DNA of 64,000 nucleotides from an uncultured delta proteobacterium. GTDB taxonomy: Bacteria > Desulfobacterota > Binatia > Binatales > Binataceae. Made by a program: the position numbers and the translations under genes. Below are positions 7,382 to 38,908 of this stretch, one piece after another (the stretch's first letter is position 1; every line of letters begins with the position of its first letter). The notes below the pieces were generated by a model, which saw nothing but the letters and a program-made list of their open reading frames with translations, had not been told where the DNA came from and did not search any database. Where the stretch lies: positions 66,847 to 130,846 of the forward strand of contig CAVRJV010000006.1 of NCBI GenBank assembly GCA_963721485.1, written 5' to 3'.

Positions 7382-7936
7382 ATGTCCAGAACGCGACCAA
7401 CCCCGATTTGTGCAATAGCCCTGACACTGGCCCTGACCCTGGTTGGTTGTGTTACGCAGTCGAAGTACGATGCGCTGCAGCAGCGGTACGATCAGCTCAA
7501 CCAGACCATGTCGTCAGAAATTAGTCGGAAGCAGATGCACATCGAGCGCTTGCAAAACGCTATCAAGGTCACGGTCGACGATCAGTTGCTGTTCCCGTCG
7601 GGTGAGTGGCAGATGCCTGCGACTGCGCAACAGACGATTGCGAAAATGGCGCCAATCCTCGCTCCAATGCAGCACACGAGGATTGCCGTCAATGGATATA
7701 CCGACGATGTGCCGATCGGTCCCGGACTGAGACGCCAAGGCATCACGAGCAATCTAATACTGTCGCAGAAGCGTGCCGATAACGTGATGCAATTTATGAT
7801 CTCCAACGGAGTCAACCCTGCTCTGATCTCTGCACAGGGATTCGGCGACGCAGATCCGGTCGCTTCGAATGATACGGAGAACGGCCGAGCCCAAAACCGC
7901 CGCGTAGAAATGACGCTGGCGGGCCCGGGCAATTGA
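7382..7936 (+). CDS. OmpA-family lipoprotein (OmpA/MotB C-terminal peptidoglycan-binding domain)
   Basis: 184 aa. Contains the lipobox LTLVGC. The OmpA_C pattern is LFPSGEWQM...INGYTDDVPIG...NLILSQKRADNV...GFGDADPVASNDTENGRAQNRRVEM. Confidence 0.9.
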   Translation: MSRTRPTPICAIALTLALTLVGCVTQSKYDALQQRYDQLNQTMSSEISRKQMHIERLQNAIKVTVDDQLLFPSGEWQMPATAQQTIAKMAPILAPMQHTRIAVNGYTDDVPIGPGLRRQGITSNLILSQKRADNVMQFMISNGVNPALISAQGFGDADPVASNDTENGRAQNRRVEMTLAGPGN

Positions 7937-8126
7937 AGCACCCGAAACCCTGCCGCCTCTAAAGCGCGTGGTCTGCCGACATAGCGGCTAGGTAGCCGGC
8001 CGGTCGGTACACCGCCGCGTAATGGACAAGTGAACCCTCGCGCTCTGTCCACAAAGGTCAGATCTCCTCTCGTGAATTGAAGCGGGCCGCCTCGAAGGAG
8101 TTGTTGCTCGATTTATCAGCCTCAGG

Positions 8127-8288
8127 TTAAAGGACCGCTCGTCCGGCAATGAGAGACACGACAAACAAGACCAGGAATACGAAGAACAGAACTCGAGCAA
8201 ACTCCGTGGCTGTTCCTGCGATGCCGCCGAATCCGAATGCCGCGGCAACCACGGCTATCAAGAGAAACACGAGAGCGTAGTATAGCAT
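8127..8288 (-). CDS. DUF1328 (YtjA-like) small membrane protein, 53 aa
   Basis: Below the ORF-track size cutoff. I translated it by hand: [53 protein letters not shown]. This is the typical DUF1328 two-helix pattern with FGFGGIAG. Confidence 0.75.
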
Positions 8289-8385
8289 TACTCAATGACC
8301 TCCAAGGTTGATGCTAAGTTTGAGCAACGACTATGCCACTGCTAATGCTCATGAATACGAGAGAGAGTGATACCCCTTGGACGAA

Positions 8386-8748
8386 CTAGGCAATATTTTC
8401 CGTTGTAGCAGCTATCAGCGATCGTCGTAACACTTCGGCTACGACTATCGCACCTATACCTACAAGTCCGAACACCTGCCAATAGGGCATCCATTGATGG
8501 AGCAGCAGTACCAAGCTCGCTAGCAGTGCTACCACGCCGGCCGCAGCGAGCGCGATTAGCGTTGATGTGAGGTAGACTTGGCCGAGGAGGGTCTGTGCCG
8601 CGCCAACGATATTCGATTCGAGCAGTCGCGCCTCGGCGGCGATGATTCGGGCGAAGTCCGACAGAATTCGAACCGCCAGCTCCGGCAATTCGTCCCGCGG
8701 CTCGCGCTCGATTGTGAGGTCCGACTCGTTCGACTTAGTCGCGCTCAT
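8386..8748 (-). CDS. YqjE-like 'phage holin family' (holin-X/DUF1469-type) membrane protein, stress-cluster member
   Basis: 120 aa. An amphipathic N-terminus is followed by two TM helices (IALAAAGVVALLASLVLLL, VFGLVGIGAIVVAEVL). Its start overlaps the stop of the upstream gene. Confidence 0.65.
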   Translation of the reverse strand: MSATKSNESDLTIEREPRDELPELAVRILSDFARIIAAEARLLESNIVGAAQTLLGQVYLTSTLIALAAAGVVALLASLVLLLHQWMPYWQVFGLVGIGAIVVAEVLRRSLIAATTENIA

Positions 8749-9010
8749 CGACTTTGTCTTCCTTGGAAAGTACCAAGGCGGCGCCCAACAGCAACAGCGC
8801 TATCATTGCAGCGCCGCCCGACTCCGATCCTAGCGCGAACCCTAAGGCGCCGGCGACGCACGCGGTAGTGACCGGATGGTTGCGGATTCCGCGGTCCGGC
8901 CGGAGCCGGGCGACGCCCTCTTCAACGCGATTGCCAACCTGATTCAACGCGTCGCGCAGATCATGGGTGGCGTCTTTTAGTTCATCTTTTATTTCGGGGG
9001 CGTCTACCAT
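8735..9010 (-). CDS. Small membrane-anchored protein (DUF883/YqjD-like organisation)
   Basis: 91 aa. Has a charged helical N-terminus (EIKDELKDATHDLRDALNQVGNRVEEG), then HPVTTACVAGALGFALG and a second hydrophobic helix. Confidence 0.5.
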   Translation of the reverse strand: MVDAPEIKDELKDATHDLRDALNQVGNRVEEGVARLRPDRGIRNHPVTTACVAGALGFALGSESGGAAMIALLLLGAALVLSKEDKVDERD

Positions 9011-9215
9011 TTTTTCCCGTCTTCGAGGTCATTACTGATGTTAGTCGGTCTCCCAGCATGCCCTCGAGAACCATAAGAATGATTTGGAACGAGGTGCGGT
9101 TGCTGAACCCTCCGCCAATCGCGAAGCCGCCGAGGACGGCAAGTGCTAGCGAGCGCTCTGGATACTCCGCAATTTTCTCACGCAAGTCGGCGAGGTCGGT
9201 CCGTTGCTGCGGCAT
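8982..9215 (-). CDS. Small hypothetical membrane protein
   Basis: 77 aa. Contains SLALAVLGGFAIGGGF. The gene begins 5 nt after the stop of the upstream gene. No family recognised. Confidence 0.4.
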   Translation of the reverse strand: MPQQRTDLADLREKIAEYPERSLALAVLGGFAIGGGFSNRTSFQIILMVLEGMLGDRLTSVMTSKTGKNGRRPRNKR

Positions 9216-19644: not shown

Positions 19645-19738
<94 letters not shown>

Positions 19739-23549: not shown

Positions 23550-24145
23550 CGCGCAAATTCTCCTTGCTCATCGCGAACCGATGATCGTGAGCGATCGTCA
23601 GGACTAATTTGTAGTCGAAGGTCAGGTGATCGCAATGCGCACCGATGCAGCGCGCGCACTGCGGCAAGGGCAGGCGTATCTGTTGCGCTACTGCGCGCGA
23701 TGCTTCGCTCGCCGCTTCGAGCCGATCCATCGCGTCGGTCGCATTGCGCGCCGTGGCGACCACTTCGAGCTGGGCACGGATGCGGTTGGCGAGCTGGCGG
23801 CGAAATACCGGCTTGGCGAGAAAGTCGCTGACCCCCAGCCGCATCCCCTCGGCGCGCGCATCGAAATCGTCGCGCGCGGTGATCATGATGATCGGAATCT
23901 CGGCGGTCGCCGGATTGTCCTTGAGCGCCTTGCACGACCTGGAAGCCGTCCATCTCGGGCATCATCAGGTCGAGCAGAATCACGTCGACTTCGTTTTCAT
24001 GCACCAGTTTGAGACATTGCGGCGCCCGGAATTGGCCTCGATTGGCGACGAAGCCCTCGCGCTGCAGATGGCGCGCGAGGATGGCGACGGTGTCGTGGTC
24101 GTCGTCGACCACCATGATTTGCGGCGACCTGATTGCTTCATCCAT
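23539..24145 (-). pseudogene. Response regulator receiver protein, frameshift(s) as assembled
   Basis: Track ORFs 23546..24145 ([24 protein letters not shown]...[17 protein letters not shown]) and 23539..23886 (IMITARDDFDARAEGMRLGVSDFLAKPVFRRQL) join to give a REC domain. Confidence 0.7.
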
Positions 24146-24161
24146 AGGATTCCCTGCTCGT

Positions 24162-25250
24162 CTAGCCTTCCTCGCTTTCGTCCGAAGACGCCGGCGCTAT
24201 CACGCCGCAGCGCCGCAGCTTGGCGGAAAAGGTCGTCCGCTTGAGTCCCAGCAGCCGTGCCGCCGCCTGCTTGTTTCCGCCGGTCTGCTTGAGCGCCTCG
24301 TTGATCAATCTTACCTTCCAATTCGCGCACCAAGGCGTTGAGGTTCACGCCGCCGTCGGTCAGCTTGACGCGTGATTGGCGTCGCGCGGGCCGCGCGCTC
24401 GCCACCAGGTTGGGCGGCAGAATCGACGTGTCGATAACCGAGTCCTCGCACATGATCACCAGCCGCTCGATCATATTCTCGAGCTCGCGCACATTGCCCG
24501 GCCAATCGTAGGACCACAGCGCGACCATCGCTTCGCCGGCTGATCGCGAGTTCGCGCGCCAGGCAGGCGATCGCGCATGCGTTCGAGAAAGTGTTCGATC
24601 AGAAGCGGGATATCGGAGCGCCGCTCGCGCAGCGGCGCAATCACGATCGGCACCACCTGCAAACGATAGAAGAGGTCCTCGCGAAACGCGCCCTTCGCCA
24701 CCGCCGGCGCCGAGGTCGACGTTGCTCGCCGCGATCACGCGCACATTGACGTGCGTGCCCCGGTCGGAGCCGACCGGACGCACCACCCCGTCCTCGAGCA
24801 CGCGCAGCAGTTTCGCTTGCAGCGCACCCGGCATCTCGCCGATTTCGTCGAGGAAGATCGTGCCGCCATCGGCCGTCGTCAACAGCCCGTGCCGCGATCC
24901 CGCCGCGCCGGTGAACGCGCCGCGCTCATGGCCGAACATCTCGGACTCGAGCAGGTCGTGCGGAATCGCCGCGCAGTTCACCGGCACGAACGGCTGCGCG
25001 CTGCGCGGCGACAGCGTATGGATGGCCTGCGCGACCACTTCCTTGCCGGTGCCGCTCTCGCCGGTGATCAGCACCGTCGCCTCGGTTGGCGCGACGCGCT
25101 CGATCAGCGCGCGCAGTTTGACGATGGCCGGATGCTCGCCGACCAGCGCCCGCTCGACCGCAAACGGCGTCTCGAGCCTCTGCGAATTTCGCTTGCAATG
25201 CCACCCCTGACTTCGCCCGTAACCGGCGGTACAGACTTTACCCGCCAGGT
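24162..25250 (-). pseudogene. Sigma-54-dependent transcriptional activator (AAA+ EBP with Fis-type HTH), several frameshifts as assembled; N-terminus unresolved
   Basis: Track ORF 23980..25074 carries the Walker A GESGTGKE, the GAFTGA loop ([11 protein letters not shown]), the Walker [10 protein letters not shown] and [10 protein letters not shown]. The HTH tail [30 protein letters not shown]...EEG* is readable in another frame, with its stop at 24162-24164. Upstream, [24 protein letters not shown] is in a third frame. Confidence 0.75.
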
Positions 25251-25440: not shown

Positions 25441-25893
25441 TCACTTCCTTGCAGCGCGCCGCGCGACGCGCAACGCCGCCGCCAGCTCGTCCCAGATATA
25501 GCGCGCGAGTTCCTCGGCCGAGCTATGCACGATCGGCACGATACACACGTCCGCGGCGGGCAGCACGAACTCGTCATTCTCGTAGCGGATTCGCACGACG
25601 CCAATTTCAGATTGGTCGACCGTCAGACAGTCGCTTTTGCCGGGGACGATCGTGCGCTCGTCGAGCCGATCGACGATCTCCTTGGTGAGTTTTTTGATCA
25701 ACCCGAAATCGATCACGTAGCCGGTCTGCGCCAGCCGCCCTTCGACGTACACGCCGACCTGGTAGTTATGGCCATGCAGCGGTTCGCGAAATCCCGGATA
25801 CGCGATAAAATGCGCCGCCGAGAATTTCAGATTCTCTTTGGCGACATGAATTGAAAATTTCGCGGCCATCGGTTCGCTCATGTCACTATACAA
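25441..25893 (-). CDS. 6-pyruvoyl-tetrahydropterin / 6-carboxytetrahydropterin synthase family protein (PTPS/QueD-like)
   Basis: 150 aa. Contains FSAAHFIAYPGFREPLHGHNYQVGVYVEG...GYVIDFGLIKK and IVHSSAEELARYIW. The start may instead be the internal ATG (MSEPM...). Confidence 0.8.
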   Translation of the reverse strand: MYSDMSEPMAAKFSIHVAKENLKFSAAHFIAYPGFREPLHGHNYQVGVYVEGRLAQTGYVIDFGLIKKLTKEIVDRLDERTIVPGKSDCLTVDQSEIGVVRIRYENDEFVLPAADVCIVPIVHSSAEELARYIWDELAAALRVARRAARK

Positions 25894-26782
25894 CGCCCGC
25901 CAGCTTCAGCAGCGGTCGCCAAGAGCGGCGGTGCGACGCGATGAAAACCGCTCGACCGTAGCGCGCCGCGTCGAGCGAGGTGGCCTCGAGAAACCGCTCG
26001 CGCTCGCCCCGCGCGATCGGCCCAAGATGCGCCGCCAGGTCGCGTGCGCAACCCGCATCCGCATCGAATCCCGCCGCCAGGTCGCCGACCTCCAGGCCAT
26101 GCAACCCGCCGAGAATACACTCGGCGTAATATCCAATCTGCCCCGCGCGATCGAAGCCGGGAATCTCGACGCGCATCGACTCGTCGAGCGAGAGCAGCCG
26201 GTCCATCCCGAATTCCTTGCGCCGCGAAACGACCTCGGGGTCGCCGCTGCCGTCGAATCCCGATCCGATCGCGATTATCGCCACCCGGCCGTCGTCGATC
26301 GGCACAGGATGAAACACGTAGCCGGGCGAGGTGTAGTCGAGCATCCTGCGCAACGCGACCCGATAAGCGAGCAGATCGAAATTCGTGCCGGTCGCGACTT
26401 CCATCAAGAACTCGCCAAGCGGTGTGCCCGCGCGGTCCGCAAGCTCAATCAACCGCTCGAACGCATCGGGATCGTATTCCTCCCGTCGCGCGATCATCGG
26501 CGCAAATTTGCGATCGAACGTCAGCAGCAAACCGCCGATCCCACCGCCGTCCGCCGCGACCGAAGCTTTGATCGGAACGCCACGATTGACAGGCTCGATA
26601 TCCATCGCGAGATATTTGCCATGACTCGACGGCTTGGCCAGTCCGCGGCGGGCATTGTGAATCGCCACCGGATGCGCATCGCGCGCGATCAACCTGCTCG
26701 CACCGCCGCGCCGCTCAGCCAGCAAGCCGTAGCCGCTGAGCAGGGAACCGTATCCGACGACTAGTATTTCGCGATTGCGCAA
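25886..26782 (-). CDS. Hypothetical protein with a GGCT/ChaC-like N-terminal motif
   Basis: Track ORF 25886..26896. Its first ~35 codons run through REP copy 26837..26890, so a later start (TTG at 26782) is more likely. ILVVGYGSLLSGYGL resembles the YGSL motif of gamma-glutamylcyclotransferase-like proteins. The rest is unrecognised. Its stop overlaps the PTPS start. Confidence 0.45.
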   Translation of the reverse strand: MRNREILVVGYGSLLSGYGLLAERRGGASRLIARDAHPVAIHNARRGLAKPSSHGKYLAMDIEPVNRGVPIKASVAADGGGIGGLLLTFDRKFAPMIARREEYDPDAFERLIELADRAGTPLGEFLMEVATGTNFDLLAYRVALRRMLDYTSPGYVFHPVPIDDGRVAIIAIGSGFDGSGDPEVVSRRKEFGMDRLLSLDESMRVEIPGFDRAGQIGYYAECILGGLHGLEVGDLAAGFDADAGCARDLAAHLGPIARGERERFLEATSLDAARYGRAVFIASHRRSWRPLLKLAGVV

Positions 26783-26836
26783 AGTTGATTCAGGAGCCGG
26801 GATTCTTCGCTTCGCTCTAAAATGACACAAAACACT

Positions 26837-26890
26837 GGGTGCAGGGGTCACCCCTGCCCAGGGAGGTGCGGAACCCACGGTGGGTTCTGC
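26837..26890 (-). repeat. REP-like double-hairpin element, family 1, copy A (inverted orientation)
   Basis: The reverse complement gcagaacccaccgtgggttccgcacctccctgggcaggggtgacccctgcaccc aligns with 36069..36122 and 38855..38908. Confidence 0.7.
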
Positions 26891-26914
26891 ATTCAATTAA
26901 GTGATTTTCCCTTC

Positions 26915-28012
26915 TTATATATCCTCCGCGCCCGGATAGTACTTCCCGTTGCCTAACGAATCGACTGCGGCCCAGAACACGGGGCCGCCCGGCTTCATCG
27001 GATCTTCGAGCGCCCATGCCTGCCGCTTGTAGTTCCAGCTCTCCGGGCGCAGCCGCTTGGCCTCCTCGAAATACTTCTGCGCCGCCCCCGGATGTCCGTG
27101 CTCGAACAAAAATTCGCCGAGCCTGAAATTCGCCGCCGCGCGGACCTGCGCGTCATCCGGCGTATGCATCCGCTTGAGCACTTCGGCGTCGCCGGGGACG
27201 AAGCGGCTCTTCGATCCGTTCGCCACCCAGTCGCGCAGTGCATCGAGGTATGCTTTGCGCTTGGCCTGCAGCTCGTTCATCGCGTCGGTGGGGATCGAAA
27301 AATTCGTTCGATTCATTTTTCGGAAAGCGTCGGTCACGCCGGCCGGCTCGCTCGGACGGACTATTTTCCCGCGCTCGTCGATCCAGACGGCGGTCGGCAC
27401 GTTGACCATGTCGTAAAGCTCGGCGACCAGATGCTGCCGGTCGATCAGGCATGGATAGGTGGGCTTGGCCGCCTTGATCCACGGCTCGGTCGCAGCATTA
27501 CCGCCGCTATCGAATGCGATCGCGATCGGCACGAAAGTTTTTGGTCCGAGTTCTTCGTAGAGGGCCTGCCAGACTGGCAGGTCAAAGCGGCATCCTCACC
27601 ACGAGGCCCATGAGACGACGAGGACTTTCTTGCCGCGATAGTCCGACAGCGAATGCGTCTTGCCGCCGAGATCGGGGAGGGTGAAATCCGGCGCCTCGAG
27701 TGAAGTCAGCACGCGCTTTCGCTCCGCGGCAGCCTCGCCGAAGCACCATGCGTTAAACTCCGGGTCCGACACGACGGGCTGTCCAAGGAGATTCGCCAGC
27801 GACGCAAGGTTGTAGCGGCTGCCATCGACAAGCTCGCTCGCACGCGCCGCGGGCACCGGCACGCAGATATCGCCTTTGCAGAAACCCTGCGGCTTGTACT
27901 CCCATCCGCTGACGCGCTTGAGATCATCGCCGCTAAGCCACAACGCGCCGCTCGCAGCGTCCGCATCGACGCCGCCGGTCACGCGGTCGCCGTATATAAT
28001 GTCGATAGCCAT
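26915..28012 (-). CDS. Thioredoxin-fold (TlpA/ResA-like) protein with a TPR-like C-terminus; candidate selenoprotein with an in-frame UGA (W-A-S-W-U-G-C)
   Basis: Track ORFs 27596..28045 and 26915..27532 share one frame and are separated only by the TGA at 27596-27598. Read-through gives ...DYRGKKVLVVSWASW[U]GCRFDLPVWQALYEELGPKTFVPIAIAFDSGG.... The ATG at 28012 is preceded by GAGGGTG. A SECIS-like hairpin lies 14 nt downstream of the TGA. Confidence 0.65.
27565..27581 (-). promoter_or_regulatory. Candidate bacterial SECIS hairpin
   Basis: The RNA reads 5'-CCUGCC-AGUCU-GGCAGG-3', a 6-bp stem with a 5-nt loop containing G-U. It starts 14 nt after the UGA, a spacing compatible with bacterial SECIS elements. 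Confidence 0.5.
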
Positions 28013-28075
28013 CGTTGATTCACCCTCGCGTCGAGATTTCAGCACAAATCCGGCGGACGCACCAAGCGCCTTTCT

Positions 28076-31000
28076 CTATATCCACAAGATCGCGCCGGAC
28101 GCTGGCCTGCCGGTGCTTTCTCGCACCGCTCGCACGTAAAACAGAATCTGTGCGCGATACTCGTCGAGCCGCGGCGCTACTTCAACATCGGTTTTGAAAT
28201 CGACGACGGTCCAAACTGCGCCATCATCCGGTGTTCTCCGCGAACGCCAGGTCCGCGATTCCTTCGACTGCGGTGCCGTCTTCGAGCTTGATCATCAATG
28301 GACATTCTCGCATCACCGTCTGCCGCCGCCTTCGCGCGAAGCATGAGCGAAGACTTGAGCGCTGCGGTCACGGCATTCACCGCGGCAGCGATCTCGTCGT
28401 CCGGCGCACCGATCATCTTGGCCGCGCTCGATGCAATCTTCCCGATCGCGCCGGCGTCCGCGTCGAACGAAGTCCGCAGCATCGTCAGATGCACGAGCGT
28501 GCCGAAGCGCTTGCCATGCGGCCGACCCTTGTCGCGCCGCGTCTCCTCGATTGCGATCGTCTCCGCCGACGCGGGCCCGTCGGCCGGCGCCACAAGTGCA
28601 AGCTCGGTCGCCGTCGCGACGTTCATCCTCGGCGTCGTTCCCGCCGTGAGCATCGCCGTCCGGCTCGCGCTCCATTCTTCATGCAGTTCTGACGCCGCGG
28701 TCCGACACGAGCTTGCTCTCGTCGGCCTGCAGCAGCTTGTCCTGCCGCAGTCCCATCTTTTCCTCGACGTTGAGGATCAGCAGCCGCGGATCCCACCAGA
28801 CAATTTGATGGTCCCCCGTCTGGGCCGATGCAATCCCGGCGCCACCGATTTCACTTTCCCCGGCGCCTTGGGCGGCCGCGTCAGCACGCTGTCGTCGCCG
28901 AATTCGGGGCATCCTGCAGGATGCGTCGACATCGGCGCGCGCCGCTCCGTCGCCGCCGGATAGATGACAGGATTCAGCCGTGCGAGCCAGCCGTCGCTCT
29001 CGTGCGGGTCGTCGCCAACCGCGGGCACGACGATCAGATCACGCGCGCGCGTCGCCGCGACGTACAGCAGGCGGATCGCTTCCTCCTCGTCGCGCTGATG
29101 CTCTCGCGCCTGATTCTCCTGCAGCTCGCGCGGCGCGCATCCCGCAAGTTCCATCGCGGCGAGCTTCGACGCCGGCTCGATATAGCGCGATGCGTGCTCG
29201 CGAGTTTCGTTGCAGGTGATATCGGCCAGAATGACGACCGGGAAACTCGAGGCCCTTCGCGCGATGCACCGTCATGATGCGCACGCCCTCGGTGCCTTCC
29301 TCGACAATCGGCGTCTCGCTCGCCTCGTCGCGCTCGGCGCGCGCTTCAAGCTCATCGACGAACGCGCGAAACGACGTGGTCCCGCCGCGCGCCTCGTAAC
29401 GCCGCGCCTGGTCCATGATTCGCATGACATTCGCGAGCGCCTGCTCGCCGGTCGGCCAAATCGCGAACCCCGCATGCGCGCGCGTCGTCAGCCAGCAGCG
29501 TCGCGATCGTCTCGGCGATCGGCCGTCGATTCCGTCCGCGATGCAGATCGCTTGATCACCTCGAGCGCGCCCTTCACTTCCTTGAGGCTGTCGGGCAAGT
29601 CGTCGGGCAGCTTGCGAAACGGATGCAGGCTGCCGAGCGTCATGCGAAATTCGAGCAGCGCCGCGTCCGACAGCGCGAACACCGGACCGTGCAAGCGCAG
29701 CGAACACCGTCAGCTCGTCATCGGGCCGCTCGATCGCGCCGAGCAGATTGCGCATCGCGATCACTTCTTCGCGCTCGTTGAACGATCCGCCCTTGACCAG
29801 CACATGCGGCAGATGCCGCGCTTCGAGCGCGCGCAGGTAAGGCCGCGTCACGTCGCGGCCGAACGAATTCATGCGGCGAAACAGGATGCAGATATGGCGC
29901 GGGCGAATCGGCACGCGCACGTCGGGCGCCTCGCGCTCGGTCACCGTCCATCCGCTTTCATGAACCAGCCATCGCGCGTACGCGGCGATCGCTTCGGGAA
30001 TCGACTCGTCGATTTTCCAGTTGACGACGCGGCCGAAATCGCCGTACGGCTCGGGCACCGGCAGCACGACGATCGACGGCTGCGTCGCGAGATCGGCGCG
30101 AAACGGCATGAGCGGCGCATACGCCGGCTGCGTGCCGGACTCCTCGCTCATCAGCGGCGCGAACGCAGCATTGACCATCGTCTGAATCTGCCGGCGTCGC
30201 GCGAAAGCTTACCGTCAGATGCTCGAGTTGGGCGCCATGCATCAGCAGCAGTTGCTTGACGCCCTGGTAGAGCGAAACGTCGGCGCGCCGAAAACGGTAA
30301 ATCGATTGTTTCGGATCGCCGACGATAAATAATTTCCCCGGAATCGGCCTGACCTTCAGCCAGTTGGTCTCGACGGCATCGGCCGACGACAGCAGCAGCA
30401 GAATTTCCGCTTGCAGCGGATCGGTATCCTGGAATTCATCGACAAAAATATGCGTGAAGCGATTCTGCAGCTCGGCGCGCACCGCGGGATTGTCGCGAAC
30501 CAGGTTGCGCGCGACCAGCAGCAGATCGAGGAAGTCGAGGCGTCCCGCGCGCCGCTTGAGTTCCTCGTATAGATCGACCACCGGCCACAATTCGTCGCGC
30601 AGCAGCGGCGCGAGATTCGCGCCCGCATCGTCGCGAAACTTCTTCAGCCGCGCGTGCAGATCGGATCGCCGCCGGAAGACATCCGTCGCGCGCGACCTCG
30701 CCAAAGCCGCCGCCGTATCCTTTCCAATTCCAATGCCGGCCCGTGCACAGCCTGATAAGCACGGATTCGAGCGCGTCATAATCGCGTCCGCGCACCGCTT
30801 CCAGGCGCGTTGCTTCGTTCATGGGCCGCGCGATATCGCGTCGAGGCTCTTCGCCAGCCAGTCGTCGTCCTCGCCCAGTTCGGCAAGTTTGCCGAGCGCC
30901 TCGACCTCCGCGATTAGTCGCGTCGATCTCGGCGTCGCGATCGCGAACGGCGAATGCGTGCCACGGCGAATCGAAGTCGCGCCAGTTCATCAGCTCGAGC

Positions 31001-31558
31001 GCCGCATGCCGCGCGATTTCGCGCGGCCCCGTGCGCGCCGACAAATCGCGCCGCCGCAGCAGCCGGCGCATGCCCTCGCCCGGCTGCGTCGAGGATTCGC
31101 TCGAACCATCGCTCGAATGCCGCGTCGAACATCTCGCCCGCAACGTCCTCGGGCGCCACTTCGAACATCGGATCGACGCGCGCCTCAACCGGCCGCTCGC
31201 GCAGCAGGTCGGCGCAAAACGAATGAATCGTTCCGATGCGCGCTTCTTCGAGTTGCTTGAGCGCCAGGTCGAAGCGCGCGCGCCCTTCGCTCGAAGGTTC
31301 GGTGTCCTGCCGCGCCCGCTCGATTTCCGCGCGCAGCCGCAGCTTCAGCTCGCCGGCCGCCTTTTCGGTAAACGTCACCGCGACGATTCGCGCCAGCTCG
31401 CCGCGCCCCGACCCGATCACCGAGACGATTCGATTCACCAGCGCCGTGGTCTTGCCGGTGCCCGCCGCCGCCTCGATCACGAGCGTGGCGTCGAGGTCGT
31501 CGCGAATCCGATCGCGCACCGCCTGGTCGGATATGACAGTTGGATTCGCGAGCGTCAT
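28076..31558 (-). pseudogene. addA: AddA-type UvrD-family helicase with a C-terminal PD-(D/E)xK nuclease, many frameshifts as assembled
   Basis: The start MTLANPTVISDQAVRDRIRDDLDATLVIEAAAGTGKTTALVNRIV (Walker A) is in track ORF 30914..31945. UvrD motifs are spread over 29958..30779 (FTHIFVDEFQDTDPLQ) and 29039..30178 (VRIMTVHRAKGLEF). The nuclease end is ...GIADLAFAEN..DGAVWTVVDFKTDVEV...ILWI*, with its stop at 28076-28078. The ATG overlaps the addB stop (ATGA). Confidence 0.8.
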
Positions 31559-34500
31559 GGCATCTCGCGCAGCCGCGTCAGCGAATTGAGCCGCGCCTCT
31601 CGGTTTGATCTGCGAGCGCCGCTCCTCGTACGGCCCGCACACGCGCTTGTAGTCGCACCAGTCGCATTCGCGATCGTCCGGCGCCGCCGGCAAAAATCCC
31701 GCTTCGAGCGACTCCTTCACGATCGCGACGAAATCGCGCGCCGCTTTGCGCGCCTCGTCATTGATCTCGACCACGCGCTCCTCGTAGCCGCCCGCCGCCG
31801 TGCAGTAGTAAAGCCGTCCCGCGTAAATCTTCTCCTCGAGAACGCTTTCCGCCGCGAGCGCGTACAACACCGGCTGCAGCGTCTTGCCGCCGCCGATCAC
31901 GAAATTCTTCTCCGCGCGCACTTTGCCGGTCTTGTGATCGGTCACGCGGATGCGCCCCGCCGGATCGCGCTCGAGCAGATCGATCGATCCGCGCAGGCTG
32001 AGGCCGCCGTCAATCGCGACCGGATCCGCCGAGCTATGCGGGTCCGCCTTGCGCCCGATCGCTCAGCCCAAAGCCGAGCTCGAACCATTCGGGCCGCCAA
32101 TGCTCCGGATCCTCCGCCGCGCGCCGCAGCCATTCGCGCAAGTCGGCGCGGATACTTTCGATACCGTCGAGCCACACGCGCTCGATCGCCGGCGCCAGCT
32201 CGTCATGCCGTTCGCGCCGCAACTTCGTCGAGCTTCTCGTCGAGCAGCGCGGACGCATCTTCCAAATCTTCAGGCGTCACCGGCAGCACGTCGAGCTCGC
32301 GCAGCGCCGACAGGATTTCGTACTGCACCTCGGCGAAAATGCTGCCGCGCGTCAGCGGATCGAGCGTCTCGATCGCCTCGGGCTCCTCGCGCGGTTCCAG
32401 CCGATGGACCGCTTGCAGAAAAAATCGATACGGGCACGCCGCGAAATTTTGCAGCGCCGTCGGCGAGTACGAACGCGCGCTCAACTGATGCTTCGACAAT
32501 GCCGCGAGCGCCGCCGCGTCCGGATCGACCAGCCCGTCCGCCGGCGTCCATCGCCTGAGCCATCGCCGCGCGCGCGCGCGCAACGCCCGCCCGAGATGCA
32601 TATTGGCGCCGAGCAGATAATTCGCCGCGCCAATCGGTGGTCTGCGGATCGGCGTCGACCAGTTTGTCGAGCACTGCGAGATCGAATTCGGCATCGTCGA
32701 TCGCGTCGGCGGGATTCTCCGGCGCCGGCCACGACAACCGCGTCGTCGGCTGCGAGGCCGCGCGACTCGCCAGCTCGTCGAAGCCGGGCAGGCGGCCCTC
32801 CGCCGCGCGTAGGACTTCGAGCGCATAGAACGACGGCACGCGCGGGCGGCCTTGATCGAGATCAACACGCGGATATGAAAACATGGCGCGCACTCGCGCC
32901 GCGCCCGCCGCAATTCGGAGCGCGAGCCGTTCCGCGCCGACGCGCCGCTCGTTGCGCGCGAGATACGGACTGAGCCGTAAGCGCGCCTCATCGGAAAGAA
33001 TCGGATCCTCGGTCAGCTTGCGCGGAAACATCCGCTCGGCAAGACCGGGAACGATTACGACGTCGAACTCCATGCCGCGCGCGCGATTCGGCGGCGCGAC
33101 GAACACGGCGCCGTAGCGGCGCACGCGCCGCGGAGCTTCGAGCCGGCCGAGCCGATCGTTCAGCACCAGGCGCACCTCGTCGAGTCCGACCGGACCGACC
33201 GGCGCCATCGGCTCGAGCTCCGCCAGCGCGGCGAGCACCGGCTCGCGATCGCGAATCGCCAGGTCAACCAAGTCGCGCAGAAACTTGAGCCAGTCGCCCC
33301 AAGTCGCATCGCGCGGCGCCGCTTCGAGCATCGAGAGAATCGGCATCGCCACTTCGCCGAGATGCGCGAGGTCGAGTATTCGCCGCTTGATGCTCGCCGC
33401 GTGCGCGTCGTCGTCGGCGACTTCAGCGAGACGGGACTTGAGCTCGTTGCCCAAACCCGCCAGACGCGTGCGCCAACGATCGGCGCTGCCGATCACGGCG
33501 GCATCGACAATCAGCCGCTCCCATCGCCATGGCGCGCGCGCGGTTCCATCGATTACGGGAACGGGATCGGAAACGTCGATGTCGGCGCCAGCGTCTGTCG
33601 GAGAGGCGCTTTCAACTTCGAGATCCGATTCCAGCGACGCGGGCGCAAGCTCCGCATCGGGACTGGTTGCCGGCTCGTCGTCGCGCTTGCGATCGGCGTC
33701 GGGCACCTGGGCGAGCGAAAGATATTCCGCGAAACGGCGTGCCGAGAGATCTTCTGCGGCGCAGCAAAGCAGCGCGAGCATCGCGCGGCCGCCGGGTTCG
33801 GGTCGGCGTGTACCGCGCGCGAAGTACGCGGGGATGTCGGCGCGGGCGAGTGCTTCCTGAAGATACGGCGCGTAGCGAACGGGGTCGTGCAGCAGCACAC
33901 TGATTCGATCGAACGGCACACCGCGCCGTGCCTCGGCGGCGATTCGGCGTGCGATCTCGACGCACTCGTGCATCTCGCCCGGCGCTGAAATCACCGTCAC
34001 CGTATCGTCAACGTCGCGTTCGGGCGGGGCGGTATCGGCGAACAGATGTGTCTGCAGGCGGTCGAGGGACGGTGCGGTAGTTTCGTTGACAGTCGGAGAC
34101 GATGCGGTGGCGCGGATGCCGAGCGCGTCTTCGAGGATCGATTGGACTGGAGAGTCGCCGGCGGGAATTGTTGCGAGGATCGACGGCGCGCGCGCGGCGA
34201 GGGCGGCGATGAAGTCGCGGTCGAGCGCACTATCGACAAGAACGTCGAGGAGCAGAATCGGCAGGCCGACGAAGCGAGGCGGATCGTCGGCGAGCGCGGC
34301 GCGGGTCGCGACTTTCAGCATCCCGGCGCGATCGATCAGCTTGGCGTCGGCCAGCTCGGTGTCGAACTGAGCCAGCGTCGCGGCGATCGCTTCGCCGGCA
34401 CTGCCGAGGGCGCGCGATTGATCGGCGGCGACGTTGTTCCATCGAAGCTCGATCAGCGTGCGCGCCAGCGCTCGCGAGAAGCCGGGGAGATTCAGCACGG

Positions 34501-34834
34501 AATCGAAATGCTTGAGCGCGCCTGAGGGCGCGAGGCGGAAGACGGCGCGCGCGGCGACCGCTTCGGCGGCAAGTCCGTCGGCGGGCGCGAGGCCGGCATC
34601 GGCAAGTTCCTCGGCGGCGAGTAATCCGACGAGGCGGTTGAGGGTCATGCGATGAACGCCGAGCATCGCGCCACGCGACAACGCGAAGGCGCGGACGAGG
34701 TCGTCGGCAGCCTCCTTGACCGACGCGATCACGAGTATTTCGCTGGCGGACGGCTGCGACTCTAGCCACGCGCGTGCGGCGGCGACGCGTTCGGCGGCGC
34801 GTTCCGAGATTATGATTTCACGAGAAGCTGGCAT
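31555..34834 (-). pseudogene. addB: AddB-type PD-(D/E)xK nuclease subunit with a C-terminal CxxCxxxxxC cluster, frameshifts in the C-terminal third as assembled
   Basis: Track ORF 32270..34834 (854 aa, no Walker A) continues in 32203..32991 (CPYRFFLQAVHRLEP), 32034..32258 and 30914..31945 (RVTDHKTGKV...GRLYYCTAAGG...RECDWCDYKRVCG). The end ...LNSLTRLREMP* is readable in another frame. Confidence 0.8.
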
Positions 34835-34939
34835 CGGCGCAGCGCGGATCGATGCCGCGCCACGTCTCTATCGTCTGCTTCGACACTCGGATCTCGCAAG
34901 GGGGCGCGCCGCGGGTTTCCACAGCGAGGACAACGGTTG

Positions 34940-36068: not shown

Positions 36069-36122
36069 GTGGAACCCGCCGTGGGTTCCACACCTCCTTG
36101 GGCAGGGCTGAGCCCTGCACCC
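36069..36122 (+). repeat. REP-like double-hairpin element, family 1, copy B
   Basis: Sequence is gtggaacccgccgtgggttccacacctccttgggcagggctgagccctgcaccc. The hairpins are GTGGAACCC-gcc-GTGGGTTCCAC and GCAGGGCT-GAGCCCTGC. Confidence 0.7.
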
Positions 36123-38854: not shown

Positions 38855-38908
38855 GTGAAACCCGCGGTGGGTTTCACGCTTCCTTCGGCAGGGGTGACCC
38901 CTGCACCC
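38855..38908 (+). repeat. REP-like double-hairpin element, family 1, copy C
   Basis: Sequence is gtgaaacccgcggtgggtttcacgcttccttcggcaggggtgacccctgcaccc. It lies between convergent stops. Confidence 0.7.

Follow-up and report, generated by a model that had tools for sequence, protein, structure and literature searches.

What is the meaning of a single in-frame TGA in an otherwise continuous gene? The question is raised by a locus in a 64,000-nucleotide stretch of DNA (hereafter the window) from an uncultured delta proteobacterium of the Binataceae (GenBank assembly GCA_963721485.1, contig CAVRJV010000006.1, positions 66,847 to 130,846). On the minus strand of the window, a thioredoxin-fold gene at 28012..26915 carries a TGA at the position of a redox-active cysteine. 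A sequence-only reading of the window had proposed that this TGA encodes selenocysteine (Sec) and that the hairpin behind it resembles a selenocysteine insertion sequence (SECIS). The codon could also be an error, a true stop, or a codon read as a standard amino acid. Comparison with related sequences makes it very probable that 28012..26915 is a genuine selenoprotein gene, i.e., one intact gene of the ResA-like WAxxUGC family in which UGA specifies Sec. This is concluded because of the family score, the TGA or Cys found at the same column in relatives, the conserved coding sequence past the UGA, the hairpin, and the presence of selA in related genomes.

Reading frame and family assignment

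The two open reading frames (ORFs) on either side of the TGA, 27596..28045 and 26915..27532 (minus strand), share a single reading frame. Translation of the minus strand confirms that the TGA at 27598..27596 is all that separates them and returns the read-through product noted earlier, ...KKVLVVSWASW-U-GCRFDLPVWQALYEELGPKTF.... The ATG at 28012..28010 is the likely start codon of the gene, and a GTG at 28045 is an alternative. The sequence-only reading had added that other broken genes of the window can be rejoined only by a change of frame. This is true for both upstream helicase-nuclease genes that were checked, where at least 10 changes are counted against intact orthologs.

The protein is a member of NCBIfam NF041054.1 (WAxxUGC_long), and the name 'ResA-like WAxxUGC motif-containing protein', given in the sequence-only reading, is correct. 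For this equivalog model the cutoff is set at 300 bits. With U replaced by C for scoring, the match reaches 344.8 bits (E 6e-103); it runs from residue 27 to residue 360 of the protein and from position 9 to position 350 of the 354-position profile. The family motif W-A-x-x-U-G-C is present at residues 135-141 as W-A-S-W-[TGA]-G-C, and likewise in 146 related loci. The near full-length match, the TGA-coded motif, and the three-part length of ~365 aa are all common to the family, and no structural difference from it is seen. A database look-up found no exact copy of the window protein on record; the closest database proteins are 95% identical to it, over the C-terminal half only.

Models for ResA, StoA, and TlpA score far under their cutoffs (NF002854, 69.9 vs. 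170; NF041202, 46.9 vs. 210; NF047696, 45.6 vs. 230). Pfam places two matches on residues 106-219: PF00578 (AhpC-TSA) at 69.1 bits (gathering cutoff 26) and PF08534 (Redoxin) at 54.1 bits (26.6). Both Pfam families also cover ResA/TlpA-type proteins. Sequence matches in the PDB are chains of the thioredoxin family, ResA, and TlpA, with E values between 7e-18 and 1e-9. In the alignment with 3kcm, a CPPC protein, WASW[U]G-CRFDLP falls on WATWCPPCREEIP. The UGA is therefore at the first Cys of the redox motif, and the spacing is U-x-C instead of CxxC, with a one-residue deletion relative to CPPC, both as the sequence-only reading had it. A peroxiredoxin assignment was considered and rejected. The peroxidatic motif of peroxiredoxins is PxxxTxxC/U (PMC13188914), and the residues before U139, V-V-S-W-A-S-W, lack both the Pro (-7) and the Thr (-3).

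A family with the same motif is already on record. In the passages available from Zhang & Gladyshev 2008, a 'Prx-like (UGC-containing)' family from the Global Ocean Sampling (GOS) data counts 46 Sec sequences and 855 with Cys, with a higher abundance in non-marine samples. A 2026 review, as excerpted, lists a UGC-motif thioredoxin-fold family ('UGC-containing TlpA family') and cites Zhang & Gladyshev 2008 and Peng et al. 2016; the published example in the excerpt is MDE0950781.1. The features that these passages share with the window gene are the pfam00578 / cd02966 thioredoxin fold, a single Sec in UGC, and many Cys homologs. The same passages contain no SECIS covariation analysis and give no function. 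From the shared motif and domain, the 2008 family, the review entry, and NF041054 appear to be one family. Literature searches returned nothing on 'WAxxUGC' or on Binatia with selenocysteine.

The family is thus already known from an NCBIfam equivalog and published catalogues, and the window gene is a new sequence of it from an uncultured Ca. Binatus-like soil bacterium of the Binataceae. Novelty is low because the family is already catalogued, and little new biology is offered. What is added is a quantified SECIS element within the D-L-P-V-W-Q codons that is mostly lost in Cys forms, the breadth of the Sec form across phyla, and a model with two accessory domains without a solved homolog, which makes the protein a reasonable target for functional work. 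There is also a gain for annotation: standard gene callers split the gene into two 'hypothetical proteins', and the Sec reading restores one 365-aa redox protein.

Selenocysteine or cysteine at codon 139 among relatives

Conservation of the TGA was followed in two scans. In the first, over GTDB representative genomes, all 67 related loci that bear the motif have TGA (68 sequences including the window). Most of these loci are from Ca. Binatus and Binataceae; the others come from Chloroflexota, Dehalococcoidia, and Alphaproteobacteria. The second scan returned TGA in 79 of 80 loci, even though it was seeded with Cys forms. Its loci are from Methylomirabilota/Rokubacteria, Alpha-, Beta-, and Gammaproteobacteria, Dehalococcoidia, and SAR202; the cultured Reyranella sp. 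CPCC 100927 is among the sources. Together, the scans give 146 TGA loci in several phyla, so TGA at codon 139 is best read as an ancient, selected feature and not as an error of the window. The Sec form is widespread in metagenome-assembled genomes (MAGs) of Binataceae, Methylomirabilota, Proteobacteria, and Chloroflexota. Cys forms are rarer than TGA forms among the relatives found.

Full-length homologs show what replaces Sec. At the Sec column, 10 of 13 full-length relatives (~45-53% identity) have Cys, two have Trp, and one has Ser; Cys141 is invariant across the 13. One of the Trp entries, P0014 (L351, JGI contig Ga0526514_059792), has the codon TGA, and its gene call used table 4. The Trp of P0058 is probably also an artefact of a table-4 call. 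Such false entries, at least one and probably two among the database relatives, look like Trp variants and are Sec forms.

The homologs also bear on whether the two halves belong together. In Cys-form relatives the halves are one gene, and the full-length homologs (363-397 aa) are collinear with the read-through product. In the protein database, nearly all of the closest relatives (70-95% identity) are recorded as C-terminal fragments of 205-226 aa, a pattern typical of gene callers that end a gene at a Sec-UGA.

Coding continues past the UGA in the 135 distinct sequences that were compared. The residues G-C-R after the UGA are 100% conserved, and there is no in-frame stop within 18 codons. 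Column entropy after the UGA is 0.62, 0.45, and 1.19 at codon positions 1, 2, and 3, the periodicity of a coding region. The first available downstream start codon varies among the relatives.

The SECIS hairpin

The hairpin described in the sequence-only reading, C-CUGCC/AGUCU/GGCAG-G, was found at 27581..27565, starting 14 nt after the UGA. Counting an A-U closing pair, it has 7 bp around a GUC loop; the computed energy ranges from -10.4 to -11.5 kcal/mol. The bacterial SECIS (bSECIS) model of PMC13188914 calls for a loop of 3-9 nt, a stem of 4-16 bp, a G within the first two loop positions, a UGA-to-loop distance of 16-37 nt, and a folding energy (minimum free energy, MFE) no higher than -7.5 kcal/mol. 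The window hairpin lies within all of these published ranges: the loop is 3-5 nt, (A)GUC(U), the stem is 6-7 bp, and the UGA-to-loop distance is 20-21 nt.

The archetype of the bacterial SECIS is that of E. coli fdhF. A likeness to the fdhF apex had been suggested, and only a generic part of it stands, i.e., a small apical loop that opens with G-U. In common with the consensus bacterial SECIS, the window element is a coding-region hairpin just 3' of the UGA with an (N)G-U loop start, and stem, spacing, and energy agree. It differs in its short, minimal stem, in the lack of a conserved lower helix, and in having no Rfam match. The SelB site is predicted.

The hairpin is conserved as a structure. 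RNAalifold, run on 135 distinct 63-nt segments, returns the 6-bp hairpin as the sole consensus structure. Standard pairs are formed in 98.3% of cells, compared with 28-62% in controls with the 3' partners shifted by 1-3 columns. Pair 1 occurs as CG in 97 sequences, UA in 16, and UG in 8; pair 2 is CG in 120, UG in 11, and UA in 4; pair 5 is CG in 108 and UG in 27. Cells in which both partners have changed number 20, against 3.3 +/- 1.6 in shuffled alignments, and 0 of 500 shuffles reach this value. In a set of 141 sequences, wherever the 3' base of pair 1 is A, its 5' partner is U (16/16), and CAA always comes with UUG (4/4). Third-position entropy is 0.51 within the hairpin and 1.53 outside it.

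Because the hairpin overlaps the conserved peptide D-L-P-V-W-Q, 79 Cys sequences were used as a control against 141 Sec forms. The Cys forms come from a DNA-pattern scan and are mostly from Actinomycetota. Only 8 have the exact peptide D-L-P-[VIL]-W-Q, hence the broader set of 79. All six stem pairs are formed in 127 of 141 Sec forms, and the other 14 form five; among Cys forms, 8 of 79 have all six, and the mode is four. The mean hairpin energy is -9.6 kcal/mol in Sec forms and -5.4 kcal/mol in Cys forms. Codon choice differs as well, e.g., none of the 141 Sec forms uses CTC, CTT, or CTA for the stem Leu, vs. 29 of the 79 Cys forms. The loop residue is Val, whose GUN codon gives the apical G-U, in 138/141 Sec forms vs. 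2/79 Cys forms. This suggests that the G-U of the SECIS loop constrains the amino acid in Sec forms. Taken together, conservation, covariation, and the comparison with Cys forms show that both the TGA and the hairpin have been selected for.

Two further observations concern the same region. The WASWCGCR relatives in Actinomycetota (L150-L269) carry Ala, Gly, or Leu in place of the Sec-form Val. An alternative MFE fold of the 48-nt context (-15.0) is preferred in the single sequence but is not conserved, and it was set aside.

Selenocysteine machinery in related genomes

The selenocysteine pathway was sought around orthologs of the window gene. SelA and SelD were searched with tblastn using approximate sequences of the E. 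coli proteins as queries; the identity of SelA was confirmed independently by Pfam PF03841 and NCBI naming. In four related genomes, selA is on the same contig as the WAxxUGC ortholog. In the Binataceae MAG L060, an intact SelA is encoded 7 kb from the ortholog. The selA of L274, whose translation contains 14 stop codons, and the ortholog of L055 are on one 3.27-Mb contig, and SelA P0133 (L350) is on the same 392-kb contig as ortholog L042. SelA P0283 (L352) is on the same 3.85-Mb contig (contig_9436) as ortholog L004, whose C-terminal half is 92% identical to the window protein, with a nucleotide identity around the gene of ~79-81%. Many more SelA matches are named 'Candidatus Binataceae bacterium'.

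A tRNA-Sec is adjacent to selA in L280, a related MAG that is labelled Deltaproteobacteria and was retrieved by the Binataceae SelA query. ARAGORN found no tRNA-Sec near the selenoprotein genes across the related loci. In the Binataceae loci, selD was not located by tblastn, and selB was not among the queries. If UGA is Sec, the organism is flagged as a selenium user.

Several neighbours were seen in passing. Two proteobacterial MAGs have putative SelD homologs no more than about 3 kb from the WAxxUGC gene (L121 5462-6454 and L124 742-1761; tblastn, approximate query). In L060, a gene for a DsbD-like thiol:disulfide transporter (7437-9194) is directly upstream of the WAxxUGC gene, with selA 7 kb away. 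The L352/L004 contig has the same DsbD-RibBA-...-selA neighbourhood (L352 650-2461), but ~770 kb from the WAxxUGC gene.

Domain structure and proposed mechanism

The structure was approached through P0018, the closest natural Cys homolog, which is collinear with the window protein and 51-52% identical to it. The P0018 model has a pLDDT (predicted local distance difference test) of 95.1 and a pTM (predicted template modelling score) of 0.91. It is made up of an N-terminal beta-rich part, a central thioredoxin fold, and C-terminal helices (H248-357). A Foldseek search against the PDB superposes the central ~115 residues on ResA structures 1st9, 1su9, and 2f9s with target-normalised template modelling (TM) scores of 0.77-0.78 and a root-mean-square deviation of 1.3-1.6 A. 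The thioredoxin fold with the ResA-type central insertion is present in this homolog model. Foldseek matches cover the central domain only, and the flanking domains are read as having no solved PDB counterpart because the query-normalised TM is ~0.3.

In the N-terminal domain (~residues 1-95), the Pfam search gave no match. The invariant columns of this domain in the full-length homolog alignment are L24, W25, G36, G43, C45, and C50. Over the C-terminal domain, TPR_2 scores 20 bits, under its cutoff of 27.

The central fold and the W-x-x-W-C signature before the nucleophile are common to ResA (Bacillus subtilis), TlpA (Bradyrhizobium), StoA, and CcmG-type proteins. Unlike ResA, TlpA, and StoA, the window protein has a U-x-C motif, no signal peptide or anchor, and extra C-x4-C and helical domains. 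ResA and TlpA are anchored outside the cytoplasm. No hydrophobic segment was found in the window protein: the maximum Kyte-Doolittle value over 19-residue windows is 1.04 for the whole protein and 0.42 in the first 30 residues. The selenoprotein, which by its sequence has no signal peptide or membrane anchor, is predicted to be cytoplasmic. A role in the maturation of extracytoplasmic cytochromes or Cu centres, as for true ResA/TlpA, is unlikely for the same reason.

The established bacterial Sec pathway suggests how the gene would be read. The ribosome would reach UGA-139, where the hairpin 14 nt downstream would recruit SelB-GTP-Sec-tRNA(Sec). Selenocysteine would then be inserted at UGA-139 in place of termination. 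Sec139 is aligned with the nucleophilic Cys of ResA/TlpA and would act as the nucleophile. The invariant Cys141 is likely the resolving residue, and by position and family knowledge the two could form a U-G-C selenenylsulfide in the redox cycle.

A more specific picture is tentative and rather on the doubtful side. In it the family would be more than ResA with selenium: a cytoplasmic three-domain selenoenzyme (N-terminal C-x4-C beta domain, U-G-C thioredoxin fold, and C-terminal helical domain) with a dedicated substrate or partner, in which the SECIS fixes part of the protein and the Sec form is predominant in soil and freshwater lineages (Binataceae, Methylomirabilota). As part of this picture, and with the same reserve, the loop Val might be obligatory in Sec forms, leaving Cys forms free to use Ala, Gly, or Leu.

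Alternative explanations

A TGA produced by nonsense mutation or by a sequencing or assembly error, with the gene a pseudogene or the codon really TGC, TGT, or TGG, is suggested by the neighbouring helicase-nuclease genes. Their frame changes relative to intact orthologs (at least 10) are those of an error-prone assembly or a decaying locus. That damage consists of indels and not substitutions, and the same TGA recurs in independent assemblies, short- and long-read, at 146 related loci of several phyla. The conserved SECIS hairpin and the intact in-frame coding on both sides of the TGA are also hard to reconcile with an error, and this explanation is vanishingly improbable. It is also extremely improbable that the UGA is a true stop between two proteins, with 138 aa in the N-terminal product and translation of the C-terminal one initiated at GTG 27532. 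Gene callers do annotate such a split in most relatives, giving 205-226 aa 'hypothetical proteins'. Splitting there would break the thioredoxin fold in two at the active-site motif, and the 21 codons from the TGA to the GTG are constrained as protein, with G-C-R invariant and third-position periodicity. The downstream 'start' differs among relatives, the Cys-form homologs are single proteins of 363-397 aa, and the curated NF041054 model spans both halves. A UGA read as Trp, Cys, or Gly, through stop reassignment or near-cognate read-through, would fit the database entries with Trp at this column (P0014 and P0058). The Trp of P0014 is an artefact of a table-4 call on TGA, and with table 11 the orthologous genes of relatives have normal boundaries. 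The conserved G-U-loop hairpin is a specific SelB signal that is mostly lost in Cys forms, and selA and tRNA-Sec exist in related genomes. A standard amino acid at this codon is therefore most unlikely.

Several points weigh against the selenoprotein assignment itself. The fold of the single sequence is not significant against shuffles (z -0.29 and -0.19), and Rfam searches at gathering and permissive settings gave no SECIS-type match, a null that carries no information on short bacterial SECIS elements. Since the hairpin lies over the codons of the strongly conserved peptide DLPVWQ, its conservation is partly at the protein level. Real covariation is limited to two of the six pairs, in sequences that are phylogenetically related. 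The window has no selA or selD by tblastn and no tRNA-Sec by ARAGORN, as the sequence-only reading had stated; selB was not queried. The assembly is indel-rich near the gene, and the searched literature reports no selenium incorporation or enzyme activity for any family member.

Feature coordinates and genomic context

Table 1. Coordinates of the selenoprotein gene and its predicted elements in the window
Feature	Position	Strand	Description
Complete selenoprotein coding sequence	26915..28012	minus	365 codons + TAA; ATG 28012..28010; Sec predicted at codon 139; TAA 26917..26915
Putative Shine-Dalgarno sequence GAGGGTG	28021..28027	minus	8 nt 5' of the ATG; predicted from sequence
In-frame UGA, predicted Sec residue 139	27596..27598	minus	Nucleophilic first-Cys position of the thioredoxin-fold CxxC
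Predicted bacterial SECIS hairpin	27565..27581	minus	6-bp stem (7 with A-U closing pair); AGUCU/GUC apical loop with G-U; D-L-P-V-W-Q-A codons
N-terminal beta-rich domain, ~residues 1-95	27728..28012	minus	Invariant Cys45 and Cys50 (C-x4-C); homolog alignment, P0018 model
ResA/TlpA-like thioredoxin-fold domain, ~residues 96-225	27338..27727	minus	W-A-S-W-U-G-C redox motif; Pfam, PDB alignment, P0018 model
C-terminal all-helical domain, ~residues 226-365	26918..27337	minus	Weak TPR-like signal; many invariant residues

The window is collinear with MAGs of the Ca. Binatus group at ~79-88% nucleotide identity. Directly downstream of the selenoprotein gene is a 336-aa ORF (25886-26896, minus) without a Pfam match, which is itself upstream of a PTPS/QueD-like gene at 25441-25893. 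Its N-terminal 'GYGSLLSG' presumably resembles the motifs of ChaC/gamma-glutamylcyclotransferase. Both genes follow the selenoprotein gene in all Binataceae loci and not in other phyla. The downstream neighbour was considered as a functional partner and rejected, since synteny confined to Binataceae is lineage synteny.

The region upstream of the selenoprotein gene is made up of two AddAB/UvrD-PD-(D/E)XK-type helicase-nuclease genes, 28079-34867 (minus), whose frame-change junctions are not obviously homopolymeric. Intact orthologs are found in L002, L062, L016, and L006 (about 1,100 and 1,190-1,310 aa). The breaks could be assembly indels or gene decay. A sigma-54 activator ORF at 23980-25074 (minus) starts inside its AAA+ domain, with the Pfam match running from residue 1 at profile position 25. 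This suggests an N-terminal truncation or another frameshift.

An intergenic repeat resembling repetitive extragenic palindromic (REP) elements forms a double hairpin at 26820-26914, directly 3' of the selenoprotein TAA (-34.6 kcal/mol over 96 nt). It recurs in the window at 36072-36122 (inverted) and 38887-38908, and 56 further copies were found in 25 related loci, all of the Binatus group (L002-L062). The repeat may be a terminator or a small dispersed element. The only tRNA that ARAGORN finds in the window is a tRNA-Ser(GGA) at 19647-19738 (minus).

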